From a virus (lineage: Duplodnaviria; Heunggongvirae; Uroviricota; Caudoviricetes): DNA of 27,891 nt. The stretch is taken from IMG/VR virus record IMGVR_UViG_3300047476_000806; one strand, written 5' to 3'. Below, piece by piece: positions 1,748 to 21,992 of the stretch (position 1 is its first letter; every line of letters starts with the position of its first letter). A program made the translations under genes and the position numbers. Below the pieces are notes generated by a model, which worked only from the letters and a program-made list of their open reading frames with translations, ran no database searches and had not been told where the DNA came from.

Positions 1748-1839
1748 TTGTAAATAAATGGATCTATTTTTTTGATATTTTTAAGATTTTTTTTATATAA
1801 AAAATAGTCTTTAATGTAATTAATTAATTTGGTAAACAT
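1744..1839 (-). CDS. Small basic 31-aa protein ending DPFIYK (not in ORF track)
   Basis: ATG at 1839 gives MFTKLINYIKDYFLYKKNLKNIKKIDPFIYK*. It fills the whole gap, overlaps the carbamoyltransferase stop, and its TGA forms an ATGA overlap with the sulfotransferase start. Confidence 0.7.
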   Translation of the reverse strand: MFTKLINYIKDYFLYKKNLKNIKKIDPFIYK

Positions 1840-3317
1840 ACTTTTACTCCATATTGTTTTGTCCATCGTTTAGCATCTTTTTTAGTATTAACTAAAGGTT
1901 CACCTTTAATATTTAAACTAGTATTTAATAACATTGGGCATCCTGTTAATTTATACCATTTTAATAATAAATCATATAAATCAGGATGATTATTTATATT
2001 CACTGTTTGTACTCTACTTGTATTATCATAATGTACAATTGCTGGATAAAGATCGGGCCTTTTACATTTAACTGTAAATTGCATATATGGGCTAACAAAC
2101 CCAGAATCGACTTCAAAATAATCTTCAACAAATTCTTCTAATATAATAGGAGCAAATGGTCTAAATGGTTCTCTAAACTTTATATTATTAACTCTATCTT
2201 TAACATCTTTTCCTCTAGGATCTGCTAATATGCTTCTATTACCTAATGCTCTTGGTCCAAATTCAGCTTTACCTGCGGCCACCGCTACAATTTTATTTTT
2301 TAATAATTCTTCAAGTATTTCATTAGTTGGATACGCACCAGTTATTTCATGACCAATATATGGGCCAGGCCAATCAACGTGTTTATTCCAATTTGCTAAA
2401 ACACAACCAATAGAACTACCAGCATCACCTGGGTTAGGCATAATCCAAACATTATCATAATATTTTAATGCCAAAGTATTAGCAACACAGTTCAACGCGC
2501 AACCACCAGTTATCACAAGATTTTTTGAGTCTATAGTTTTTAAAGAATATTTTATAATTGCAACAAATATCTCTTCAAATATTTTTTGAGTAGCTGCCGC
2601 AATATCATAATAATCTTGTTGTGTTGTTAAATCTGGTCTCCAATCTAAACATCCTCGATGTAGATTTTTTCTAAAAATAATATTAGGATTATTTTCATTC
2701 GGTAAATGAACAAAAAAGTCTGTTTTTATTTCATTATAAAACTTTTCAGGATCTCCTAATGCAGACATTCCCATTAAAATATATTCATGTTCTTGAGGTT
2801 TTAAATCTAATCTTTGTGTTATAGCACTATACCAAAGTCCAACACTATTCGGATAAGATTGAGAATATTTTTTAATTAATTTATTATTCTTGCCATGCCA
2901 AATGGTAAAACATTCCCATTCGCCTATACTATCAAGAGAAATAATTACGGCATTTTTAAACGTGCTTGTAAAGTATCCAGCCGCAACATGACTTTTATGA
3001 TGATTTGTATATTTTACTGGAATATCAATTCCAAATTTTTTAAGATGACTTCTAGGAAATTCATCTAATATAGAACTATATTGACCTGCATATAGTTGTC
3101 TAGTTTTTTTTAATAATAAATTCTCATAGAAATATATTTTATTTGGATATCCATATTTTAATGCCTCATCTATTATTTGTTGATTTAAATATGGATCGTT
3201 TTTTATTCTGCTATATCTTTCAGAATGGCTTGCATAAACTAATGTTTCACCAATAAATACTGCTAATGCGGCATCATGGCTTAAACCACTCCATCCCCAT
3301 GTTATAATATCATTCAT
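1824..3317 (-). CDS. O-carbamoyltransferase (NodU/CmcH/TobZ family)
   Basis: HDAA, HHKSH, LDSIGEW, GGCALNC, EFGPRALGNRSILADPR, KFREPFRPFAP and LLNTSLNIKGEP cover both the Kae1-like and YrdC-like halves. Confidence 0.95.
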   Translation of the reverse strand: MNDIITWGWSGLSHDAALAVFIGETLVYASHSERYSRIKNDPYLNQQIIDEALKYGYPNKIYFYENLLLKKTRQLYAGQYSSILDEFPRSHLKKFGIDIPVKYTNHHKSHVAAGYFTSTFKNAVIISLDSIGEWECFTIWHGKNNKLIKKYSQSYPNSVGLWYSAITQRLDLKPQEHEYILMGMSALGDPEKFYNEIKTDFFVHLPNENNPNIIFRKNLHRGCLDWRPDLTTQQDYYDIAAATQKIFEEIFVAIIKYSLKTIDSKNLVITGGCALNCVANTLALKYYDNVWIMPNPGDAGSSIGCVLANWNKHVDWPGPYIGHEITGAYPTNEILEELLKNKIVAVAAGKAEFGPRALGNRSILADPRGKDVKDRVNNIKFREPFRPFAPIILEEFVEDYFEVDSGFVSPYMQFTVKCKRPDLYPAIVHYDNTSRVQTVNINNHPDLYDLLLKWYKLTGCPMLLNTSLNIKGEPLVNTKKDAKRWTKQYGVKVCLPN

Positions 3318-4290
3318 TTTTATACTTTTGTTTCCATTTTACATAAATGTCATTATTCATTTGTATACCAGGATGAGAACATTCGTGCCCAAATTCATAA
3401 TCTCGTCCTGCAATTAAATTCAACTCATTTATGTTTTTAACTTTATAATTAGGTCTGGCAGGCCAAATACCATCGACATCTGTAATAATATTTAATTCAG
3501 CAAAGTTACTAAAATGCCATACTGGAATTCCTGCCAATTTACATAATGTATCTACGGTTTTTTTAATTCCTAAAAAACTATATTTCCAATGATTGCTATT
3601 ACTTATATATTCTTGATATGATTTATCCCATAAAGTGTAATCATACTTAAAAGTACCATAAAATAAATGATCTGCATATCGTGGATAACATTTTCTAGTT
3701 AAAGAAGACCATGATACTGCAATGAATTTTGGTAATTTTGGTTGAGATAATAACTGAACAATGTTTCTTAATATGAATTCATTGCCGGCTCCTGGTGCTC
3801 CAGCATTAACTAAATCACAATTAAGATCCTTAGCTATTTTATAGGACCACGTTTCCTCTAATGGTAATCCAACTCCAGCAGTAAAACTGCAACCAAATAC
3901 TGCAATATAATTATCCCAATTTACATCATTAAATTCATTCATTCTATAACCAAGAGAATTTAATTTATATTCAATTGGTCTATTGTACCAAATCCATTCT
4001 TCACCTAATTTTTTTTGATTGTCAAGAAATAATCTTTCAGAATCAGTATCCCAAAAATTAATGGTGGTGGATCTCTGTTTATTTTTGTGTAACTCAACTA
4101 GAGGAAAATCATATATCTTCTTAAGAAATTGATCGTGTTCTAAGCTATTAATTAAATCGTTTTCTATTCTATTAAAACTCAACCCATTATTTGTATAATG
4201 TTCCAACCCATCCGAATCAGGATCACGACCCAGAATTTCTTGATATAATTGGGTTATTTTTTGTTGTCTATTATTAAAAAATGATGCCAT
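3310..4290 (-). CDS. SGNH/GDSL-like protein with N-terminal DUF4214-like helical module
   Basis: FGCSFTAG (block I), NAGAPGAGN (block II) and a C-terminal HPG. N-terminal LYQEILGRDPDSDGLEHY. Start moved to 4290 (TAATG overlap with the upstream stop) from 4302 in the track. Confidence 0.6.
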   Translation of the reverse strand: MASFFNNRQQKITQLYQEILGRDPDSDGLEHYTNNGLSFNRIENDLINSLEHDQFLKKIYDFPLVELHKNKQRSTTINFWDTDSERLFLDNQKKLGEEWIWYNRPIEYKLNSLGYRMNEFNDVNWDNYIAVFGCSFTAGVGLPLEETWSYKIAKDLNCDLVNAGAPGAGNEFILRNIVQLLSQPKLPKFIAVSWSSLTRKCYPRYADHLFYGTFKYDYTLWDKSYQEYISNSNHWKYSFLGIKKTVDTLCKLAGIPVWHFSNFAELNIITDVDGIWPARPNYKVKNINELNLIAGRDYEFGHECSHPGIQMNNDIYVKWKQKYKNE

Positions 4291-4985
4291 TACTGTTTCC
4301 ATTTAAATTTGTAAACGTTTGAATTTAAATTTATATCTAATTCTTCATGCATATTAGGGCGCATGTGTACTCCGTTTACACCAATATGTTTAGATCTGGA
4401 TGAAATTGGATAAATACATGATAATTTATTAGACGGTAAAATCACGTCTCTGATTTTATGATCCCACCCTCTAAATGAATAATCAAAATCCCAGGTTTTT
4501 TCTAGAAAGTTATACCATCTATTTTGCCATATTCCCCACAACCAACAATCAAAATTTGGTTTTATTGTAACTAAATCCTCATCTTTATTCAGTTTAGTGT
4601 GAGCACATATTGCTAAAATATTTTTATTTTCTAAGAACAAATCACTGCAAAAATTAAAATAATTTAATATATCTGCTGATGGTAATAGATCTTCTTCTGC
4701 GGCGATTACAAAATCATATCCTTTGTTAAAAACCAAATTTAATCCAGTGTGTGGATTTCTTAAAACTCCATGAGGAGGATTATTTACGGATATATTGACA
4801 TTTAAATTATTATCTAATTCAAATTGGTGTATTAAATTTTCAATAGTTTCAAAATTATTTTCAGAATAATCTATGCTAAAATAGATGTCATATTCATTTA
4901 AACCAATTACTTGACCCCATTGTTTTAATGTTTTTTCAAAATACATAGGTCTATCATAACAAGTAAACATTATTGCTTTTTTCAT
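4290..4985 (-). CDS. GT-A glycosyltransferase (GT2/GT13-like)
   Basis: FTCYDRPMYF start, acidic EED motif (IAAEEDLLPSADIL), CWLWGIW, GWD and SRSKHIGVNGVH. Confidence 0.75.
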   Translation of the reverse strand: MKKAIMFTCYDRPMYFEKTLKQWGQVIGLNEYDIYFSIDYSENNFETIENLIHQFELDNNLNVNISVNNPPHGVLRNPHTGLNLVFNKGYDFVIAAEEDLLPSADILNYFNFCSDLFLENKNILAICAHTKLNKDEDLVTIKPNFDCWLWGIWQNRWYNFLEKTWDFDYSFRGWDHKIRDVILPSNKLSCIYPISSRSKHIGVNGVHMRPNMHEELDINLNSNVYKFKWKQ

Positions 4986-5968
4986 TATGTTCCAAAATCG
5001 GGATGATTAATTCTAGTTATAAAACTATTGGAGAAATTATCTAAATTAGTAGTTAATTTCATTCTTTCATTATTTATATCGCTGTCATCAGATGATCTAT
5101 ATACTAATATAGGATTAGTAAATTCAGTTACACATTCATTTGGAAAATAATTCCAAATATTATCTGCTTCAACACATACTGGATAATTTAATTCTAACAT
5201 TTTTTTAGCACCAGAGTTTGATATAATATATGCATGTACTCCATGTACAAAATCTAGTTCTACTGAAGGATAGTTAGGATTATGAATAGAAATATTTCCA
5301 ATTAAATACTTAGACTCATCTAAATAAATTATTGAATTTTGTTCGTTTAAAACGTTAGGGGCAGATGCAGTTTTAAGTTTACCGTTATAATAATGATTAG
5401 AAGAAAAAGAACCCAATATTAAAAAATCAAATCCATAATTAGAATTAACATCAAAGTTGAATAATAGATTCTTAAATTCTATAGTTAATTCCGCATCATC
5501 TTCTAATACAACTGCATATGGCAAATCATTTGCTACTATTTTTTTGGCAATTTCTATATGAGATAAAGCACACGCTATTTCAGATTTTAACATAGTACGA
5601 TGAATTTGTTTTGCTTTTATATCGTCATACACATCAGAAAGATCGTCGGGTAATTGTTGACCATCAATAGCTTTTATTATCTCATAATTTTTAATGCCAA
5701 GATTATTTAATTTTTTTTGAATAGCTTCTTTTCTATCATTTCTACGTTCCAAACTAATAATATAAATAGGAACACAATTATTTAATTGTAAATTATCATT
5801 TGGATTAATTGAATTAAACTTACTTTTAAACTCTTTAGATTGCCAAAGACCTATTTGTATTAAGTATAAATCTAAACTTCTACTTGCCAAAAACTTAATA
5901 CGTCTCTGATCAACATCTTTACCTATAATAGTAGAATATAACTTTTCTATTGATTCTTTTCTGGTCAT
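4985..5968 (-). CDS. Glycosyltransferase family 25 (LPS-biosynthesis type)
   Basis: IYIISLERRNDRK, KAIDG, EIACALSHIEIAKKI, VVLEDDA and AYIIS..GAKKML. Confidence 0.88.
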   Translation of the reverse strand: MTRKESIEKLYSTIIGKDVDQRRIKFLASRSLDLYLIQIGLWQSKEFKSKFNSINPNDNLQLNNCVPIYIISLERRNDRKEAIQKKLNNLGIKNYEIIKAIDGQQLPDDLSDVYDDIKAKQIHRTMLKSEIACALSHIEIAKKIVANDLPYAVVLEDDAELTIEFKNLLFNFDVNSNYGFDFLILGSFSSNHYYNGKLKTASAPNVLNEQNSIIYLDESKYLIGNISIHNPNYPSVELDFVHGVHAYIISNSGAKKMLELNYPVCVEADNIWNYFPNECVTEFTNPILVYRSSDDSDINNERMKLTTNLDNFSNSFITRINHPDFGT

Positions 5969-6810
5969 AGTTTATTTCTTTTAGCAATTAATCTATTTCT
6001 AATTTCTTGTATTTCTTCACGAGACTTAGGCATCATTCTATTTAACAATATAAAGTATTCATCCTTTTTATTTACAGAGTCCCATGAATCATATTGCGAC
6101 TTTCCAGTTGGACCAATATTATGATGAAATCTTGAGTTTATTTCTGGATGTAAAAACGTTTCATTGGGATCAGATTGTATTCCCGGTTTACCATACTTAT
6201 CATTTAAATTAATGTAATTAATTCCAGTTTCTTTAATACTTAAATAAATCATAAATCCATCATATGGTGAATTATGTTGAATTAAAGATTCCACTTTGTA
6301 TAATTGTTTAAATTTGTTATTAAATTTTTGGGTGTGCTCATGATTAACATCAAATATAACTATACCCGATTCAATATGATCTTCTCCGCCATTATATTCT
6401 CTTTGACATGCTATAGCACAATTATTTAATAAATTCTCAATAAAATTATAATTGTTTGGCTTAAATATACAATCCCCATCTAACCAAATAACATAACAGT
6501 CTTTATTATTATCTAAAGCATGTTGCATTACAAATGCTTTATAACTAAATCTGACACCCATCTTTTTATTATACAACGAATGTTTTGATTTGGTCTCAAA
6601 TTCGCATATCCAAGCTTTATGATTAGGTATTGCAATATCATAGTTAATAATATTAATTCTCGAATCAAATATTTCTATATCAAAATCTAAATATAAATCT
6701 ACAGTAATGTTAGATTCGGATACATTTTTCGTGAATGTATCAATCCATTTCTTACCATATAAATCATATCCTATCTTAGAAAAAGTTGTAACAAATTTTA
6801 TAGGCATCAT
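5965..6810 (-). CDS. Putative GT-A fold nucleotide-diphospho-sugar transferase
   Basis: FVTTFS start, RFSYKAFVM, DxD motif IWLDGDC and ESGIVIFD; glycan cluster context. Confidence 0.6.
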   Translation of the reverse strand: MMPIKFVTTFSKIGYDLYGKKWIDTFTKNVSESNITVDLYLDFDIEIFDSRINIINYDIAIPNHKAWICEFETKSKHSLYNKKMGVRFSYKAFVMQHALDNNKDCYVIWLDGDCIFKPNNYNFIENLLNNCAIACQREYNGGEDHIESGIVIFDVNHEHTQKFNNKFKQLYKVESLIQHNSPYDGFMIYLSIKETGINYINLNDKYGKPGIQSDPNETFLHPEINSRFHHNIGPTGKSQYDSWDSVNKKDEYFILLNRMMPKSREEIQEIRNRLIAKRNKL

Positions 6811-7562
6811 TTTAAATACTCTTTTTCGTCACTGCGCCACGAATCATAATTGCAATTTCTCCACGTTATACTAGCTGATTGATGAAATATACACGTTGAT
6901 GGATATTTGTATGGTGTAAAAATATTATCTTGCTTCAAAATAAATTTGGTGTTATCGAATTGTACATTTTTATTTTCGTTATAATAATTTGAAGTCCCAC
7001 CTAACATCATATGATTGTGCTCATGCATATCATAGTATTCTAAAATGCCGTCTGAAAATGCTAATTGTCCAAAGTTTTGTATAGGGGTAGTTTGTGATTT
7101 ATCTAAGAAAAGATTACTGTTATATAATTTCATAAAATTATTCAATACTGAAAGCAATACTGGGTTTTTTGGTGATGATGCAAATGCAAAATTACAAAGA
7201 CTTCCGTTTTCTCTTTCGATTGCTACAATTAATTTATCTTTTTCGTTAAGCCATTCACTGAATGGCTTTGAACATTCACAATCTATATCAACATAAACAC
7301 CACCATAGACATATACAACAGCAACACGCCACACATCCGCTTTCATTACTCCAAATGGTAATGAATTATACATATTATAAAAATCTGAATTAAAATTATC
7401 TTTTATGAATTGATTGCATCTATCATCATCCATGAATAACCATTCGTAATCAGGATTTAAAGTAATAATAGATTTAATTAGTGGATGAGAATTTACATGA
7501 GGAAATGATTTAGCAGTTTGCCAAACTATTTTTGGAATTTGTTGTGTTATTTCTCGCTTCAA
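6807..7562 (-). CDS. Glycosyltransferase family 32 (OCH1/SUR1-like DXD sugar-binding)
   Basis: IPKIVWQT, KADVWRVAVVYVYGGVYVDID, LCNFAFASSPKNP. TTG start directly after an in-frame TAA. Confidence 0.88.
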   Translation of the reverse strand: MKREITQQIPKIVWQTAKSFPHVNSHPLIKSIITLNPDYEWLFMDDDRCNQFIKDNFNSDFYNMYNSLPFGVMKADVWRVAVVYVYGGVYVDIDCECSKPFSEWLNEKDKLIVAIERENGSLCNFAFASSPKNPVLLSVLNNFMKLYNSNLFLDKSQTTPIQNFGQLAFSDGILEYYDMHEHNHMMLGGTSNYYNENKNVQFDNTKFILKQDNIFTPYKYPSTCIFHQSASITWRNCNYDSWRSDEKEYLK

Positions 7563-7701: not shown

Positions 7702-8598
7702 TTAAGAAACTCTATACCATAAAGTTGATATATGCGATGATTCTGTGGACACACCAGCATAACCCATACATCTCCATGTTCCATCAACATTAGTCCAGTT
7801 GACTACTGCACCAGTTGTCTTAACACCTGCTGCCGAGAGGGGACCAGATGCCGTAGTAGAAATTACATCTTGTCCTGGTAGCACATTAGACCCATAACTA
7901 GAAGATAATCTCAAGAACATGTATGATCCTATTGCTAATGGATCGATTGTTGGAATTGAAATATTGCCATCAATTATTAACGTACCACCTGGCATACCAT
8001 ATGAGTCTAATGCTGAGACTGTATTAGCAACAATAGAAACTTCACCAATTAATCCAGAAGCAAACACAACATTATCCGTAGTATTTAATGATTGATTTGC
8101 GCCAGCAGTATTTGCGGTATTAAATGCCGCCTGAGCGTGAAGTTGTGCTGTATTAGCTTTCGTATATGCACTATTAGCATATGAACCAGCAGTGTTTGCT
8201 CTTTGTAACCCTGTGTTAGCATAAACACCAGAAGTTACTGCTCGTTGGTCAGCAGTTGCCGCATTTGTAGTTGCTGTATTGGCTTGTGTATAAGCACTAT
8301 TGGCATATGAACCCGCAACGCCAATTGTTGTACTGATAGTTGTTGCAAAGTTAGCATCATCACCTAAGGCTGCCGCTAATTCGTTTAGAGTGTCTAGTGT
8401 GCCAGGAGCCGCATCAACTAAGTTAGAAACTGCTGTTGTAACATATGATTCGGTCGCCAATGGTTTACCACCAGCAGTAGAACCATCCATAACGACAACG
8501 GTGTCTTTTGTTAAATCGATGAAAATTTCACCTACAGCACCAGTAACACTAGCTAAGTTTGCTGTGGTATCTCTTCTAAATTGTAGCGTTTTTGCCAT
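7702..8598 (-). CDS. Tail fibre/receptor-binding protein with Mtd_N-like head
   Basis: LQFRRDTTANLASVTGAVGEIFIDLTKDTVVVMDGSTAGG (Mtd N-terminal type), fibre motif LVDAAPGTLDTLNELAAALGDDANFATT, ANTA repeats and a C-terminal GTWRCMG...TLWYRVS tip. SD AGAGGT. Confidence 0.85.
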   Translation of the reverse strand: MAKTLQFRRDTTANLASVTGAVGEIFIDLTKDTVVVMDGSTAGGKPLATESYVTTAVSNLVDAAPGTLDTLNELAAALGDDANFATTISTTIGVAGSYANSAYTQANTATTNAATADQRAVTSGVYANTGLQRANTAGSYANSAYTKANTAQLHAQAAFNTANTAGANQSLNTTDNVVFASGLIGEVSIVANTVSALDSYGMPGGTLIIDGNISIPTIDPLAIGSYMFLRLSSSYGSNVLPGQDVISTTASGPLSAAGVKTTGAVVNWTNVDGTWRCMGYAGVSTESSHISTLWYRVS

Positions 8599-9357
8599 TT
8601 TTGATTGACCTCTTTAGTTAATTCTTTTAGTTATTTATGTTATTTTTTAGTTCAAATCTACTGTGCCTGAACCAGTTTGTAAATCTTCGGTACCAGAAAG
8701 AGACATAAAATCACCTTCTAGACTTGATAGTGTTCTTGCAATTATTGCGGTTCTAACGAAATCAATAGTTGTTGTTTCAAATACAGGTGAAACATTCAAT
8801 CTAACATTTCCACCTGAAATGCTTGAATATAAATTAAATAAAACTGACGAAGACGTGTTTGATGTTTCGTTAGTATAAGTTAAATTGTCATTATGAGTTA
8901 ATAGCAATTCGGTTGAGTGAACATCACCACCCGATATAGCTTGAATTAAATACTTAACTGTTCTGAAAGATGTTGTACTAAAAGTATCAATTACTTGATT
9001 TGCAGTATTTGTTGATAATGAAGCTGTGTTATTGTACAAAGTACTCGATGCAGGTAAAGTAATAACTCCGCTATTATTCAAAGATACTGTTTGTGTGCCG
9101 CTAGATAATGTATTCGATGAACCGCTACTAGCAGTGTTTGCCGCATCAAAAGCCGCTTGTGCTAATGTAGTACCTGTATTAGCTTTAGCGAAAGCACTGT
9201 TAGCATATCCACCGGAAACACCAACCATGTTACTAATTGTAGTTGCAAAGTTGGCATCATCACCTAATGCGGCCGCTAATTCATTTAAAGTGTCTAATGT
9301 TGTAGGTGCTGAGTCGACTAAATTAGAAATCGCTGTACCAACGTAAGATTCGGTAGC
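8340..9357. repeat. Two dispersed ~118-bp similar copies (8340-8457 and 9240-9357) in adjacent fibre genes
   Basis: Both encode ATESYV.TA.SNLVD.AP.TLDTLNELAAALGDDANFATT and lie 900 bp apart, with long identical DNA stretches (e.g. gcatcatcaccta). Confidence 0.8.
8632..8639 (-). promoter_or_regulatory. T4-like late promoter, near-consensus (CATAAATA)
   Basis: Intergenic, 34 nt upstream of the 8598 start; 7/8 match to TATAAATA. Confidence 0.5.
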
Positions 9358-9822
9358 ATATCCAGCTAAAGATGTGATGGCAGTATTTGCTTTAGCGTAT
9401 GCACTATTAGCATATTCACCAGCAGTTTCAGCGTCAGTAGTTGCCGTGTTTGCTTGATGATATGCGGCATGTGCGTGAATTTGTGCTGTTGCGGCATATG
9501 TATTTGCGGTATTCGCTTGTGCAAAAGCACCGTTAGCATATGAACCAGCACTTAATGCTTTTTGGTCTGCTTGAGCCGCGTTAATTGTTGCTGTGTTTGC
9601 AACACCAAAAGCACCATTAGCATAACTGCCAGCAGAGTTTGCGGCATTAAACGATACTAATAAATCTGCTCTTTTGGCAATCTCGATACCGCCTTGCGTT
9701 AATCCGTCATGGACTATCAGCGTCTTTTTATCGGTATCTACAGTAACTTCAGCAACAGCACCTGTAAAGATGGCTGTCTGTGCTGTATTACCGCGTCTTA
9801 GTTGTAATTGTGTATTTGGCAT
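8647..9822 (-). CDS. Tail fibre protein with Mtd_N-like head
   Basis: LQLRRGNTAQTAIFTGAVAEVTVDTDKKTLIVHDGLTQGG, ANTA/ANSA repeats, the LDTLNELAAALGDD motif, and a beta-rich C-terminal domain (IDTFSTTSFRTVKYLIQ...ISGGNVRL). Confidence 0.85.
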   Translation of the reverse strand: MPNTQLQLRRGNTAQTAIFTGAVAEVTVDTDKKTLIVHDGLTQGGIEIAKRADLLVSFNAANSAGSYANGAFGVANTATINAAQADQKALSAGSYANGAFAQANTANTYAATAQIHAHAAYHQANTATTDAETAGEYANSAYAKANTAITSLAGYATESYVGTAISNLVDSAPTTLDTLNELAAALGDDANFATTISNMVGVSGGYANSAFAKANTGTTLAQAAFDAANTASSGSSNTLSSGTQTVSLNNSGVITLPASSTLYNNTASLSTNTANQVIDTFSTTSFRTVKYLIQAISGGDVHSTELLLTHNDNLTYTNETSNTSSSVLFNLYSSISGGNVRLNVSPVFETTTIDFVRTAIIARTLSSLEGDFMSLSGTEDLQTGSGTVDLN

Positions 9823-14590: not shown

Positions 14591-15160
14591 TTATCTTGAA
14601 TTGAATAGAAATAAGTCTGTTGGAACAGCTAATCTGATATTACTTTGATATGTTGTTACATAATGATATAAAAAACTAGGAAAGACTACTATTTGACCGC
14701 AAACAGGTTTATGTTTTAGTGGAGCAAACCATTCTTGAAAACTTAAATCATATCCTCTATTGGCATTTTGTCTAGGGTCAGTAAAAACTATTTCACCGCC
14801 AGATTCCGAATCGTCAGCTATAAGATACAAAACTGAACTAAGTTGACTTCCTCTATGATTATGATAATTGAGTGCCTGACCTTGAGCATATGAAACTAAC
14901 CAACCATTCATCTTATGACCGTGCCAATCATCAATATTTTTATTCAATGTTTGATTTAAGTATGAATTAAAAGCTGGTTTAAATATATCATTCTTAACTC
15001 TTTGCATTTCTGGTTTTTCAAGTAAAGAATCATCAGCACTTTCTTTACCAACCAAAGTATCTTTATTCATCAACAAATAATTGATAGTGTAATCCAGTAA
15101 TTCGGTATCTGTAACATCTTCAATTAATACCGACGTTTGCCAAAGATTAAGCATACTCAT
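14591..15160 (-). CDS. 2OG-Fe(II) oxygenase (TIGR02466-like)
   Basis: NGW, YHNHRGSQLSSVLYL, GGEIVFTDPR, VVFPSFLYHYV and a terminal R (NIRLAV). Confidence 0.85.
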   Translation of the reverse strand: MSMLNLWQTSVLIEDVTDTELLDYTINYLLMNKDTLVGKESADDSLLEKPEMQRVKNDIFKPAFNSYLNQTLNKNIDDWHGHKMNGWLVSYAQGQALNYHNHRGSQLSSVLYLIADDSESGGEIVFTDPRQNANRGYDLSFQEWFAPLKHKPVCGQIVVFPSFLYHYVTTYQSNIRLAVPTDLFLFNSR

Positions 15161-15560
15161 TTAACATAAACTCTTCATCAAAATAACTTCTAACATGAGG
15201 AACCATTCCTTTTGTTACATCAAAATTTAAATAATCTATAGATTCCAATATTTGATTATAGACACCTTTGTTTTCACTATAAGGTAAGAAGTATGGGTCG
15301 TTACCATATAACAAATCTTTATCATTTAAACAGTCGATGAAGTCTTCACCAAATGTTTCAGATATCCATCTAGCGTAGCAAATTGCGACCATATAACTCT
15401 TAGCTGGATATACCCAACCCATAGTACTATCAGTGAAGTATCGTATCGCATCATCAACAATATTATTTGACAATAGAATATTTTTAGTCTTCAAGTCATC
15501 ATCATGTTCTGTGTGTAGTCTATGAAAAATTTCTTGTCTAACTTTCCAGTCGTTCATCAT
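15147..15560 (-). CDS. Hypothetical protein (137 aa) in the rSAM cluster
   Basis: Intact ORF overlapping both neighbours; no motif recognised. Confidence 0.75.
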   Translation of the reverse strand: MMNDWKVRQEIFHRLHTEHDDDLKTKNILLSNNIVDDAIRYFTDSTMGWVYPAKSYMVAICYARWISETFGEDFIDCLNDKDLLYGNDPYFLPYSENKGVYNQILESIDYLNFDVTKGMVPHVRSYFDEEFMLNEYA

Positions 15561-18498: not shown

Positions 18499-19130
18499 TT
18501 AATTTTCCACTTATAAGAGAAAGCAAAAGTATATCTATTAACATTTGCTTTCAATTCTTCAACTTTATGCATAAACAAAGGATTATCATTATTAATAATT
18601 ATCATCGTTCCTGCGTTCGGTAATATCTTAGTCGTATACTTATGCTTGTTTAAAAGTTTCTTAGTAACAGATAAACTTCCACCATAAGATGACTTCCATT
18701 CTGTTTCAGTAAGATAGCATAACACTAATGTGTTTGTGCCGTCTATCACATCTTGGTGATAGTCACCACCTTCTGCACCATTCCATAGATGTATATGTGA
18801 AATTTCGTGTATAGGTCTAACTATACGCAAAAAATCAAATATAGAATTGTTTATTAGTTTTTCAGATAATTCTTTTAAAGAATCGGGACATCGTTCTAAA
18901 TTCAATCGATTTGCTCTATATTCAAATTCCATGTGAGCATCATCACCTTGAATATCGACAGGTTGACCTTCTATATACCAATCAGGAACTGTTTTGAATA
19001 CCGATTTACTTTTAATCCATTCTGTTGTATATATTTGCATCCAGAAATCAGACATCAACTCATCAGGTATTTTTGTATTTACAAAACCTTTTTCGTAGTA
19101 ATCAAATCCAAGATTTGCTAATTGATTCAT
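18495..19130 (-). CDS. 2OG-Fe(II) oxygenase (prolyl-hydroxylase-like)
   Basis: HxD (YHQD), LCYL...W..SYGGSL, distal His (FMHKV) and RYTFAF. Confidence 0.85.
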   Translation of the reverse strand: MNQLANLGFDYYEKGFVNTKIPDELMSDFWMQIYTTEWIKSKSVFKTVPDWYIEGQPVDIQGDDAHMEFEYRANRLNLERCPDSLKELSEKLINNSIFDFLRIVRPIHEISHIHLWNGAEGGDYHQDVIDGTNTLVLCYLTETEWKSSYGGSLSVTKKLLNKHKYTTKILPNAGTMIIINNDNPLFMHKVEELKANVNRYTFAFSYKWKIK

Positions 19131-19620
19131 GATTCCAATTCACTATAAAGTCAAAACAAGCTACAATTCTTCTATGTTCGGTGTAACCTGCTCTATGTAA
19201 TATTTTAGGATTATCATTTAATACAGCGATTAATTCACCATATCTAGGATAGATGACATCATCACCGACATACAATCCACCTTCTTTTATTTCACTCATA
19301 TCATTAAAGTAAAGTAAAAAGAATACGTTTGATGGTTCATCAGCATCAGAATGAAACTGGCAAAATTTAGAATCTTTTGGTAGATTACCTTTTATGTCAG
19401 ATTCTAATAATTCATATGAATGTGCATAAGGTTGTATGTATGTTAGTGCTATTTGATTGTGTAATACATTCAACATAGTCTTAACATAATCTTGATTGTT
19501 AGTAGGAAGTCTACTAATATGAGAAGTTTTAGGGTCAAACTCTAAATCATCAACCTGTAATTGGTCTGCTAAATCTGTTGCTAACCAATTACAGTATCCA
19601 TTTTTAAATAACGAGTGCAT
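19102..19620 (-). CDS. 2OG-Fe(II) oxygenase
   Basis: FHSD, FLLYFND, EGGL, distal His (LHRA) and RRIVACF. Confidence 0.8.
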   Translation of the reverse strand: MHSLFKNGYCNWLATDLADQLQVDDLEFDPKTSHISRLPTNNQDYVKTMLNVLHNQIALTYIQPYAHSYELLESDIKGNLPKDSKFCQFHSDADEPSNVFFLLYFNDMSEIKEGGLYVGDDVIYPRYGELIAVLNDNPKILHRAGYTEHRRIVACFDFIVNWNHESISKSWI

Positions 19621-19621
19621 A

Positions 19622-20704
19622 TTATCTTATTAAATAAGCTTTCAATTTCTCAGGTGATTTGACATTTTGTAATACGTAATCAATAAAATAGATATTGATA
19701 TTTTCTAAATCAATTGTTGAACAGAATGGTTCTTCAGCAACACACTCATTAGCAATAAATGCATCTAAGTCAGCATCAGTCAATTCTGTTTTACGTACAT
19801 ATTTTAAATATGATTGAAAGTATTCTTTATATTCTAATTCAGGATATACTTTATTAATAAATGAATCCAACAATACAATATCAGCATCACTAATAGATTT
19901 CAAATCAATGTTTGATTGTTTACCAAATCTAGGTGTACCTATATGACTCATGAAACTAGAGTCATTGATAATTTTAAGTGCAGGGTCTGTACTATAAGCA
20001 TCAATATTATCAAAAGTATTTAATGTAACACCAAGTCTATCTGTAAATTGTTTACGTAATAGTTTTCTATTCACAGTATACTTGGCTTCAATAATAGTTT
20101 GTTCGATTTGACGTTTAACTAATTTTTGAATTGCTACTTTTAATTTAGCTTTTTGAGTCTTATTATAAACATAAGATGATAACAAGAATTCAATACTTAA
20201 GTTGTATCCTACAGTAGTAAGAATATCTGTTGCTTCAGCTACAGTCACTGTTGTTTTACCAAAGACTGCTTCCCATTCAGCAAGTGATGGTTCGAATGTG
20301 TCGAATGCATCAAAGTCTTTAGTCTCTAAACTTCCAACAAGTTTTTCTCTATCAAAGTGTGCTTTAATAATTTTGTGAGCAGAAACAGAATCGATGTTTG
20401 CAAAAATAGCTTTGAACCAAGCACACACAATAGTTAAGAATGCTGATTGGTCTGCATAGATAACAAAAGGACGGTCATTTGTATCATTTTGTTGCGAGAT
20501 AGTTTTAAGTAATGAAAAAACACTTTCGTATTCTTTACCTTTACCTACAATCTTTGTTATATCATCAACGTGATGTAATACTTCACCAATAGATACTTTA
20601 GTACCATCAGGCATACCCACAGATTTAGATATAACCAATCTATCGTTTTTAACATCAATCAACGAATCGATTTGAATGTAGGTTTTCTTAAACAGGTGTA
20701 ACAT
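19622..20704 (-). CDS. Hypothetical protein (360 aa) in the rSAM cluster
   Basis: Long intact ORF overlapping the upstream gene and 1 nt from the next; no confident family. Confidence 0.8.
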   Translation of the reverse strand: MLHLFKKTYIQIDSLIDVKNDRLVISKSVGMPDGTKVSIGEVLHHVDDITKIVGKGKEYESVFSLLKTISQQNDTNDRPFVIYADQSAFLTIVCAWFKAIFANIDSVSAHKIIKAHFDREKLVGSLETKDFDAFDTFEPSLAEWEAVFGKTTVTVAEATDILTTVGYNLSIEFLLSSYVYNKTQKAKLKVAIQKLVKRQIEQTIIEAKYTVNRKLLRKQFTDRLGVTLNTFDNIDAYSTDPALKIINDSSFMSHIGTPRFGKQSNIDLKSISDADIVLLDSFINKVYPELEYKEYFQSYLKYVRKTELTDADLDAFIANECVAEEPFCSTIDLENINIYFIDYVLQNVKSPEKLKAYLIR

Positions 20705-21416
20705 TAATTAACTCCTCTAATTCTTTTACAGAATTTTGTTTTGCTTCTATGTATTCTTCGTTTTTAAATAATTGTTCTGAGATACCTACTGTTAACATAT
20801 ACATTGGGTTATTATTGTTAGCCCAATAAGAATACATGTTTTTACCTTTGAACATATACTCATCAAAATATTTAGAGTAGAATCTCAAACTACTTTGGTC
20901 AATACGACCGAATAATGTATAGAAAAACTCATGTTTCAGTAAGCTTACAAAGTTAATTCCTTCGTTGCTATCTGTATTATCTTCAGGAAACTGCTTCACA
21001 TAATTCTTCATTTCTTCAGAATCGATAATGTATAGATTATACAAAATCAAACTATCAATTCTAGAAACCCATTTCTTAACAATCTCAATGTTGTCTTCGA
21101 TAAATTGTTTATAAATTGTTGAGTCGGTCATGCTCTTTAATTCAAGCATAATTAAAATAACTTCTTTTTCTAAAGAAGTCACGTTCAACAACATGCCACT
21201 ATGTAAATAATCTTTAATTAATTCTAATCGTTCTTGTTCTGAACAATCTTTAAAATCTATATCTGCTGGTATATCAAGATTACTTAAATAAGTCAGTAAC
21301 TTAGAACCTTTTAATGTACTATTAGCATAATCAATCTGATAAGATATTGATTTATCTGTAAAATATTGTTTTAGATTGTCGATTGATATAGGTGCTACTG
21401 TTCTCACTAAACTCAT
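20688..21416 (-). CDS. Hypothetical protein (242 aa) in the rSAM cluster
   Basis: Intact ORF starting 6 nt after the CHxx-repeat gene stop; no confident family. Confidence 0.8.
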   Translation of the reverse strand: MSLVRTVAPISIDNLKQYFTDKSISYQIDYANSTLKGSKLLTYLSNLDIPADIDFKDCSEQERLELIKDYLHSGMLLNVTSLEKEVILIMLELKSMTDSTIYKQFIEDNIEIVKKWVSRIDSLILYNLYIIDSEEMKNYVKQFPEDNTDSNEGINFVSLLKHEFFYTLFGRIDQSSLRFYSKYFDEYMFKGKNMYSYWANNNNPMYMLTVGISEQLFKNEEYIEAKQNSVKELEELINVTPV

Positions 21417-21422
21417 AATATA

Positions 21423-21992
21423 TTATCTTCTTCCTCTTGAACCATGACAATTTGAATGACAAGAAGCATGACATACATTAATTTGAACTGTAACCGTCTG
21501 TGCTCTTGCATTATTTAAGATATCTCTTAAGTGACTAAAAAACGACTCTAAATTACCAGCAGATACATTTTGTCCTGCATCTACACCCATAGTACTCCAA
21601 CCAAAACCTTGTAAATAGTTTCCGTTTAGGTATGCAATCGCCGTAGCATCATAAACATATCCTGGTGTTGGTCGTGAGCCTGTATTACCACCGCCGCCAT
21701 CAACAAATAATAATGCTCTCAAATTTCTGATATTCGTATATGCATAAGTTTCGTTTACTAATGCATTAACAATTGAAGAAGCTGTGACTAAACTTCCTGT
21801 AACTCCTACACTTCCTCCATTGATACCGATGCCTTTACCAGAAGTGTAACCACCAAAATAGTTACCATCAAACTCAGCAAATGGATATGCATTATATCCC
21901 CAAGCAATATTTGAGTTTCCTGTTGCAACAACATAGTCAGCAAATCTGTCAACAATATTCTGTGGGGTAATAGGATTATCTAGTGATGCCAT
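21423..21992 (-). CDS. Putative modification substrate: Gly/Asn/Tyr-rich 189-aa protein with C-terminal (CHxx)3 motif
   Basis: Ends VCHASCHSNCHGSRGRR*; all three Cys in the protein are in this tail; overlaps the rSAM1 stop. Confidence 0.75.
   Translation of the reverse strand: MASLDNPITPQNIVDRFADYVVATGNSNIAWGYNAYPFAEFDGNYFGGYTSGKGIGINGGSVGVTGSLVTASSIVNALVNETYAYTNIRNLRALLFVDGGGGNTGSRPTPGYVYDATAIAYLNGNYLQGFGWSTMGVDAGQNVSAGNLESFFSHLRDILNNARAQTVTVQINVCHASCHSNCHGSRGRR

Follow-up and report, generated by a model that had tools for sequence, protein, structure and literature searches.

A conserved Cys-His tail on a candidate virion protein, and its linkage to radical SAM enzymes in tailed phages and Bdellovibrionota

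Introduction

To our knowledge, maturation of ribosomal products by radical S-adenosylmethionine (SAM) enzymes is known from natural-product peptides, from a small number of enzymes (QhpC, sulfatases) and, as of 2026, from one antiphage effector, HxsA. In quinohemoprotein amine dehydrogenase, three intraprotein Cys-to-Asp/Glu thioethers of the small gamma subunit, QhpC, are installed by the SPASM enzyme QhpD, and the sulfatase motif reads C/S-x-P/A-x-R. In the antiphage HXS system, HxsA is matured by the radical SAM enzymes HxsB and HxsC with HxsD, and the modification, which adds 8 Da on an S-H-R-S-S motif, is essential (Li et al., Nat Commun 2026, PMC13128918). Here we describe P0001, a protein encoded on a 27,891-nucleotide stretch of DNA from a tailed virus of the Caudoviricetes (IMG/VR record IMGVR_UViG_3300047476_000806, the whole of which is referred to below as the window). 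P0001 ends in a threefold Cys-His repeat, and its gene lies in a cassette that also encodes four radical SAM enzymes (rSAM1 to rSAM4) and 2-oxoglutarate (2OG)-Fe(II) oxygenases. On balance, we favour the reading that P0001 is a virion protein of the fibre module, the tail of which is modified by the enzymes of the cassette.

The tail motif and its conservation

The translated C-terminus of P0001 reads ...Q-I-N-V-CHAS-CHSN-CHGS-RGRR-stop. On the minus strand the hexamer TGTCAT occurs three times at an exact spacing of 12 nucleotides (21444-21473), which is the sole match to this pattern in the window, and bases 21423-21443 encode Gly-Ser-Arg-Gly-Arg-Arg-stop. The number of such triple repeats expected by chance, based on 100 dinucleotide-preserving shuffles, is 0.00. 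All three Cys of the protein are in the tail, as are three of its four His, the fourth being H154. The tail holds the His-x-Ser repeats H-A-S, H-S-N (H-S-S in the family consensus) and H-G-S, each preceded by Cys and with a period of 4 rather than 3. It can also be read as C-x3-C-x3-C, limited to three units and carried on a folded protein.

A word-indexed search returned 548 homologues of P0001, the best 120 of which, 187-195 amino acids long, align with it over their whole length at 56-78% identity. When the representatives of 50%-identity clusters were searched exhaustively, at least 298 clusters were obtained at E <= 1e-3. The motif CHxxCHxxCHxxRxRR forms the last 16 residues in 248 of the 257 full-length homologues that end in RR, and it is terminal in 129 of the 137 sequences that represent 50%-identity clusters. 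In the 137-row family alignment only C174, R186, R188 and R189 are invariant; the further columns conserved at 90% or above are H175, S177, C178, H179, C182, H183 and S185 in the tail, and P37 and R89 in the body, such that 11 of the 13 best-conserved columns fall within the last 16 residues. Among the cluster representatives ending in RR, the tail Cys are kept in 130-132, the His in 130-131 and the Ser at +3 in 103-122 of 137. The distance of the tail to the stop codon is fixed, and the fourth-position Ser (sometimes Asn) and the R-x-R-R end are as strongly conserved as Cys and His. Within the protein, conservation is highest in the repeat, while the body diverges, and at the level of the family the motif is far beyond chance. 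A first-pass annotation of the window had drawn attention to the regular spacing of TGTCAT and to the absence of any other Cys, both of which are confirmed by translation of the open reading frame and by the shuffles. It had also named a lack of conservation of the repeat among homologues as a refuting result; instead, the repeat and the R-x-R-R end were both found to be retained.

Some family members depart from this pattern. In P0253 (193 amino acids) Tyr replaces all three tail His, giving C-Y-S-D-C-Y-V-N-P-C-Y-R-S-R-G-R-R, and in P0162 and P0192 the middle tail Cys has been lost. Domain and tail are also found at the end of longer proteins, such as P0155 (453 amino acids) and BFVD entries of Myoviridae sp. 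ctijX18 (504-660 amino acids). P0155 has a glycine-rich N-terminal extension of a type known in phage fibre proteins, and insertions are present in the domain of some relatives. Pfam and NCBIfam (the latter at E <= 0.01) contain no family for P0001. Its PHROG match is phrog_35144, of unknown function (E 1.8e-8), in which residues 143-189 align with profile positions 141-186 of 186; beyond the tail, this match takes in only the last helix and strand.

Linkage of the tail gene to radical SAM genes in phages

Orthologues of rSAM1 (42-51% identity) were found by tblastn in 15 of 50,697 phage records, and the tail gene is directly downstream in all 15. The tail is intact even where the body is beyond recognition by BLAST, as in RSL2 ORF068, Atu_ph07 AUZ94952, pPa_SNUABM_DT01 and Phosso. 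Given this level of rSAM1 identity, and a tail that is intact where the body is barely recognisable, enzyme and tail are conserved together. The proposal that P0001 is a candidate substrate of the neighbouring radical SAM enzymes is supported by this adjacency and by the co-occurrence of the four rSAM groups with the protein in phages and Bdellovibrionota (see below).

The gene order cupin, rSAM1, tail protein and counterparts of p242 and p360 (Table 1) recurs in marine T4-like phages and in four lineages of cultured jumbo phages. These are the phiKZ-like phages of Ralstonia and Burkholderia (RSL2, RSF1, FLC6/8, S13), Agrobacterium phage Atu_ph07, Sinorhizobium phage Phosso and Pseudomonas phage pPa_SNUABM_DT01. 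The cupin/JmjC-like gene occupies the equal position in RSL2, RSF1, Atu_ph07 and pPa_SNUABM_DT01, the order of the p242 and p360 counterparts is swapped in RSL2 and RSF1, and further rSAM-like and oxygenase genes come next in each of the cultured phages. Fibre genes flank the cassette in RSL2 and RSF1. They are also located near the tail gene of Atu_ph07 (gp170), where gp176 and gp177 are virion proteins.

Genes for rSAM and 2OG enzymes are abundant in marine T4-like phage genomes, and the papers on jumbo-phage genomes give no role to the genes for a cupin, an Fe-S oxidoreductase, rSAM and 2OG enzymes that they list, and leave the tail protein unmentioned. A full-text literature search combining radical SAM or SPASM with phage tail fibre returned nothing relevant, and no paper describing the system was found in the literature searched.

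A homologue of the tail protein in virions of Atu_ph07

The virions of Atu_ph07 have been analysed by electrospray ionization tandem mass spectrometry of gel slices (Attai et al., PMC6102473, Table S5). We matched GenBank proteins to the gp numbers of that study by calculated mass. The tail protein AUZ94952 (L002:8290-9180), at 31.89 kDa, corresponds to gp170 (listed as 31,89), and AUZ94958 (66.07 kDa) and AUZ94959 (21.66 kDa) correspond to gp176 and gp177, respectively. Its 8 unique peptides, covering 35.16% of the sequence, place gp170 in slices 1-9, with the highest abundance in slice 1. Proteins of 87-139 kDa and the annotated tail fibres peak in slice 1 or 2, while other proteins of 30-34 kDa peak in slices 7-8 (PMC6102473). 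The slice-1 peak suggests that gp170 is an SDS (sodium dodecyl sulfate)-stable oligomer or a covalently attached component of the particle. The adjacent rSAM (40.87 kDa) and cupin (22.26 kDa), as well as gp169 and gp168, are absent from the virion list. The papers on S13 and FLC6 contain no proteomics. The first-pass annotation had suggested a virion protein, and the exact mass match of gp170 in this published proteome agrees with it.

Predicted fold of the body

The structure of P0001 was predicted by AlphaFold2 using the 137-row family alignment. The model (predicted local distance difference test, pLDDT, 91.5; predicted TM score 0.85) is a compact alpha/beta domain. Helices span residues 10-25, 71-83 and 145-164; strands span 88-98, 111-122 and 166-174, with C174 at the end of the last one. 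For residues 175-189 the pLDDT is only 54-72, and thus the tail is predicted to be flexible and exposed, which would make it accessible to enzymes.

Foldseek against the PDB revealed no solved relative (best E 0.5), VIA-align against 48,161 chains gave no fold match (best Z 4.0), and searches of BFVD and of the AFDB clusters recovered members of the same family only, with no functional lead. The modelled monomer is globular apart from its disordered tail, and the fold searches listed no fibre protein, a result that does not exclude a fibre. A homotrimer prediction (three copies, family alignment), which was run without controls, scored 0.00 and weighs neither way on oligomerisation. On the evidence of the model, the body is a real conserved domain, not a leader peptide, and is not fibre-like in its predicted fold. 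The likeness to a phage structural protein proposed in the first-pass annotation holds for amino acid composition (G 26, N 20, A 18, S 15, V 15, T 13, Y 11) but not for the predicted fold, for which no solved match was obtained.

The cassette in the window

The tail gene is the third of twelve tightly packed genes on the minus strand (Table 1), and the 3' end of rSAM1 overlaps its start by 17 nucleotides. Homologues of the 570-amino-acid fibre-like protein encoded upstream adjoin tail genes at four other loci (L015, L023, L033, L050). The glycan-tailoring island is located downstream of the fibre genes.

Table 1. Features of the window that are discussed in the text (aa, amino acids).
Feature	Position	Strand	Description
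Cys-His-tailed protein P0001	21423..21992	minus	open reading frame, ATG start, 189 aa; alpha/beta body (residues 1-173) and 16-residue tail
Tail C174-R189, coding region	21426..21473	minus	(C-H-x-S/N)x3-R-G-R-R, stop codon directly after
Cupin/JmjC-like protein, 174 aa	22991..23515	minus	Cupin_2 and JmjC_2 below Pfam cutoffs; phrog_8014 E 6e-25; head of cassette
rSAM1, radical SAM/SPASM, 353 aa	21976..23037	minus	CxxxCxxC at residues 13-20; TIGR04085 34.2, cutoff 27; phrog_1802 E 2.9e-65
p242, conserved cassette protein	20688..21416	minus	phrog_20767 E 7.4e-66; directly after tail gene
p360, conserved cassette protein	19622..20704	minus	no family matches; homologues in cassettes elsewhere
p172, probably 2OG-oxygenase-like	19102..19620	minus	no direct Pfam match
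2OG-Fe(II) oxygenase, 211 aa	18495..19130	minus	PF13640 32.1, cutoff 27
rSAM2, 333 aa	17497..18498	minus	CxxxCxxC; phrog_1802 E 1.7e-38; orthologues in Bdellovibrionota cassettes
rSAM3, SPASM-like, 355 aa	16439..17506	minus	PF04055 41.9; DynA and anSME matches; SPASM 25.2, cutoff 27
rSAM4, 307 aa	15538..16461	minus	PF04055 32.5; phrog_1802 E 6.4e-43; Bdellovibrionota orthologues at 45-54% identity
p137, conserved small cassette protein	15147..15560	minus	no Pfam match; homologues in Bdellovibrionota cassettes
2OG-Fe(II) oxygenase, 189 aa	14591..15160	minus	PF13759 48.7, cutoff 27; end of cassette
Fibre-like protein, 570 aa	23512..25224	minus	repetitive fibre-type sequence; directly upstream of cassette
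Fibre-like protein, 754 aa	11739..14003	minus	repetitive fibre-type sequence; downstream of cassette
Two consecutive fibre proteins	7702-8598 and 8647-9822		each begins with an Mtd_N (major tropism determinant N-terminal) domain
Glycan-tailoring island	1824-7562		carbamoyltransferase 1824-3317; GT25 glycosyltransferase 4985-5968; DXD sugar-binding glycosyltransferase 6807-7562

The protein p242 has 421 homologues and is present in the cassettes of Bdellovibrionota. Its AlphaFold2 model (pLDDT 89.2) gave a best Foldseek E of 0.43 and a best VIA-align Z of 5.1 over 55 residues. These fold searches were unconvincing and an Atlas search for p242 and p360 yielded nothing usable, so neither protein can be assigned a role like that of HxsD or of a recognition element for peptides that are made by the ribosome and then modified post-translationally (RiPPs). 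The Bdellovibrionota counterpart of p172 (blastp 8e-5) matches 2OG-FeII_Oxy_3 at E 2.9e-7. Searches of NCBIfam, Pfam and PHROG detected no protease and no exporter or transporter among the cassette proteins.

With its CxxxCxxC motif for the SAM cluster and a C-terminal SPASM domain that scores above the curated cutoff, rSAM1 is a radical SAM/SPASM protein. Its best matches are weak, and are PapB, anSME and DynA over the full length and YhhB (E 3.4e-9) and FxsB (E 7.2e-9) over the N-terminal half. anSME (TIGR03942) is matched over the full length by rSAM1 (E 1.2e-11, 44 bits) and by rSAM3 (E 1.6e-9, 37 bits), against a cutoff of 349. For HxsB (TIGR03978) and HxsC (TIGR03977), rSAM1 scores 32.6 and rSAM3 30.2 bits against cutoffs of 370 and 267.9, and only the N-terminal rSAM core aligns. 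rSAM1 scores 31.5 bits for QhpD (TIGR03906; cutoff 453), and the score for the CXXX-repeat maturase (TIGR04115), 24.4 bits against a cutoff of 350, falls short of membership. Sequence searches of the PDB with rSAM1 and rSAM3 gave E 0.005 at best, or nothing.

The cassette in Bdellovibrionota and other prokaryote assemblies

Prokaryote assemblies, with one genome per species, were searched using a back-translated DNA pattern of the tail, and 47 loci were obtained. Eight of these are spurious (out-of-frame matches or simple repeats) and are mostly from high-GC genomes such as Paraburkholderia, Frankia, Bordetella and Actinokineospora, among others; a rough estimate of ~0.14 chance hits was therefore too low. 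The remaining 39 loci are real, and 27 of them are in Bdellovibrionota. Orthologues of the rSAM enzymes are encoded within the surrounding 8 kb at ~32 of the 39. Of five assemblies in which no rSAM1 orthologue was seen around the locus, four carry one elsewhere, and the fifth has a contig that breaks off within the tail gene.

Two large contigs, from Halobacteriovoraceae (1.29 Mb) and Bacteriovoracaceae (2.45 Mb), each encode orthologues of rSAM1-4 (27-55% identity) and p242; for rSAM3, the identity to Bdellovibrionota orthologues is 54-55%. Between them, these contigs also have counterparts of p137, the cupin and p172. The cassette in Bdellovibrionota keeps its composition without adjacent glycosyltransferases, and is flanked by genes for serine dehydratase, acyl-CoA dehydrogenase, YchF, PBP, PNPase, sigma-70 and SMC. 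A prophage origin of these copies was considered and rejected, since the flanking housekeeping genes indicate that the cassette is chromosomal and not prophage-borne.

On the Halobacteriovoraceae contig, which is from a metagenome-assembled genome (MAG; G001 C1, near 300 kb), a 413-amino-acid protein with a Peptidase_S74 domain (endosialidase/fibre chaperone) is encoded two genes from the cassette (L053:14765-16006), and the gene between them encodes a 512-amino-acid protein of no known family. Two MAGs of Bdellovibrionota (L013, L021) have two tandem tail-bearing paralogues in one cassette. Outside this phylum, Rhodobacteraceae bacterium Water_Bin34 contains twin short tail-bearing genes (125-140 amino acids) that lie back to back beside a homologue of the 570-amino-acid fibre-like protein (L023, L033, L050). 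There is no rSAM gene within 8 kb of these loci, and three rSAM1 orthologues are found on other contigs of the assembly; the contigs in question are probably binned phage contigs. Cassette fragments from Dysosmobacter segnis BX15 (L034, a 4.3-kb contig) and from a Methanobacteriota MAG (L052, a 45-kb contig) are probably phage contigs or mis-binned DNA, but the former case, a Firmicutes isolate assembly, would widen the host range of the system.

A model for maturation of the tail and its alternatives

According to the reading that we favour, P0001 would be a folded protein of ~20 kDa belonging to the fibre/host-recognition module, rather than a peptide precursor. In the infected cell its tail would be modified covalently by co-encoded enzymes, the first of which is probably rSAM1, the SPASM enzyme encoded immediately upstream. 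rSAM2-4 and the cupin/2OG-Fe(II) oxygenases would then act, possibly aided by p242 and p360. The matured protein would be built into the virion, probably on or beside the fibre, where the modified tail would serve attachment or stability as a cross-link, as a chelator or through a charged contact. From what is known in general of rSAM/SPASM enzymes, plausible chemistries by analogy are Cys thioethers, Cys oxidation, C-C cross-links of His and Ser, and hydroxylation of His, Arg or Asn, the last of which might plausibly fall to the cupin and 2OG enzymes. For a His-x-Ser cross-link of the kind found in three-residue cyclophanes, an aromatic partner is consistent with the all-Tyr variant P0253.

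Several points weigh against this reading. For every member of the family, modification of the tail is something we infer from sequence, and conservation of Cys and His would by itself also fit an unmodified metal site. SPASM/twitch enzymes can act on small molecules, as BtrN does, and there is a glycan-tailoring island in the same window. The rSAM scores are far below every curated equivalog cutoff, and thus the chemistry is not readable from homology. The evidence for presence in virions comes from one distant homologue, Atu_ph07 gp170, which shares little with P0001 beyond the tail, and for the phage that encodes P0001 the same location is presumed. Furthermore, the Atu_ph07 virions were only purified with polyethylene glycol, and the list of their proteins includes the non-structural RNR, SSB and topoisomerase (PMC6102473).

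The first alternative is that the tail is an unmodified metal site. Zn, Fe or Cu would be bound directly by its three Cys and its three His, alone or between subunits, so as to stabilise or cap a virion structure, and the enzymes would act on something else, such as a sugar or a different fibre-module protein. Proteins most commonly bind metals through Cys and His, T4 fibres bind Fe and Zn through His, and genes for glycosyltransferases and a carbamoyltransferase are found beside the cassette. We nevertheless regard this explanation as unlikely, because it does not account for the Ser at +3, the R-x-R-R end, the fixed distance from the C-terminus or the linkage to the enzymes, which for rSAM1 and the tail gene is perfect in the phage records. 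In addition, the Bdellovibrionota cassette retains its composition in the absence of neighbouring glycosyltransferases, and the P0253 variant, with Tyr in place of all three His, is easier to reconcile with an aromatic cross-link partner than with a Cys/His site.

It is rather improbable that P0001 is a helper, i.e. an accessory rSAM subunit (an Fe-S or electron-donor scaffold, or a partner like HxsD) for which the true substrate is a fibre protein. Linkage data cannot separate a partner from a substrate, four rSAM enzymes far exceed the obvious needs of three repeats, and Cys-His motifs can hold Fe-S clusters. However, it is the Atu_ph07 homologue that appears in the virion list and not the enzymes, the model leaves the tail disordered and shows no fold around its Cys, and rSAM substrates typically carry repeats at a free terminus (FxSxx-COOH, HxS and CXXX repeats; PMC13128918).

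The first-pass annotation had also allowed for a very long leader, and P0001 would then be a classical RiPP precursor, with a 172-residue leader and a 16-residue core that is modified, cut and released as a bioactive peptide. A Cys-rich core at the C-terminus beside a SPASM maturase does resemble ranthipeptide and sactipeptide clusters. This explanation has very little to commend it, given that conservation of the body extends along its whole length and that its fold is predicted with confidence, that the core is invariant rather than variable, that the cassette has no detected protease or exporter and sits inside the late structural module, and that a homologue of 31.9 kDa was recovered from virions with 35% peptide coverage. 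Finally, an injected or periplasm-acting effector, in which a basic tail like that of HxsA binds DNA or the envelope and so aids genome entry or counters HXS-type defence, would be in keeping with the binding of periplasmic DNA and blocking of phage DNA entry by matured HxsA with its basic HxS repeats (PMC13128918), with the HxS-like tail and its three terminal Arg, and with ejection from the virion, but is most improbable in the face of no family-level homology to HxsA, B, C or D and of a cassette that is found next to a fibre-like gene in predatory bacteria as well.

A broader proposal, which is possible but which we put forward tentatively, is that a dedicated pathway of four rSAM enzymes and oxygenases, common to predatory Bdellovibrionota and to tailed phages from several unrelated lineages, makes a new cross-linked or chelating tail structure in the apparatus for attachment to host or prey. 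This might include a covalent staple to the fibre, which would explain the migration of Atu_ph07 gp170 at the top of the gel.

Comparison with known systems

Maturation of a ribosomally made protein by rSAM enzymes is a known kind of process, to which the P0001 system, uncharacterised and widespread, would belong. If modification of the tail by the cassette is true, finishing of a virion protein by multiple rSAM enzymes and oxygenases would be a new kind of virus-particle maturation, the first enzyme-installed radical SAM modification of a virus particle, and new chemistry on a Cys-His-Ser motif. It would also explain the role-less rSAM and 2OG genes in the jumbo-phage papers and in marine T4-like genomes. 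The presence of the cassette beside a fibre-like gene in predatory bacteria hints at a chemistry common to two kinds of bacterial predator. The system is directly testable in the cultured phages RSL2/RSF1, FLC6, Atu_ph07, Phosso and pPa_SNUABM_DT01.

Among phage proteins, the tip of T4 gp37, named as a precedent in the first-pass annotation, reportedly has His-x-His motifs with His-coordinated iron, inside an interwoven trimeric fibre. It is likewise a host-recognition protein with conserved His; however, the tail of P0001 is a flexible terminus on a globular alpha/beta domain for which sequence and fold searches listed no relation to gp37, and the analogy is weak. The resemblance to anSME is that this minimal SPASM enzyme has as its target a Cys or Ser in a folded protein, and that rSAM1 and rSAM3 match it over their full length, but the sulfatase motif is absent from the tail and the scores are far below the cutoff. 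The triceptide and FxSxx-COOH systems (XyeB, YhhB, FxsB, GrrM) have in common with this locus aromatic-x-x repeats near a free C-terminus beside an rSAM/SPASM maturase. Here they differ, since the matches are below cutoff and limited to the rSAM core, and their substrates are short peptides without Cys before each His.

The QhpC/QhpD pair is closer in that a SPASM rSAM enzyme modifies several Cys of a small protein that is kept in a larger assembly. The tail of P0001, unlike QhpC, offers no Asp or Glu acceptors and has no quinone cofactor context, and the assembly would be a virion and not an enzyme.

The HXS system also features a folded protein with tandem, basic-rich His-x-Ser repeats and several rSAM enzymes and small helpers encoded alongside it. 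Membership by homology fails, as P0001 has no NCBIfam family and the rSAM scores are far below the cutoffs for HxsB and HxsC. No Pfam domain and no fold match in P0001 corresponds to the peptidoglycan-binding domain that is a trait of the HXS effector. The repeat described here has a period of four residues, with Cys before each His, and lies at the extreme C-terminus with an RxRR end. It is accompanied by four rSAM enzymes and oxygenases, is encoded by phages or predators and is linked to the virion, whereas HxsA is a periplasmic defence effector. HXS is the nearest characterised analogy: the P0001 system may work like it, without being a member of it.

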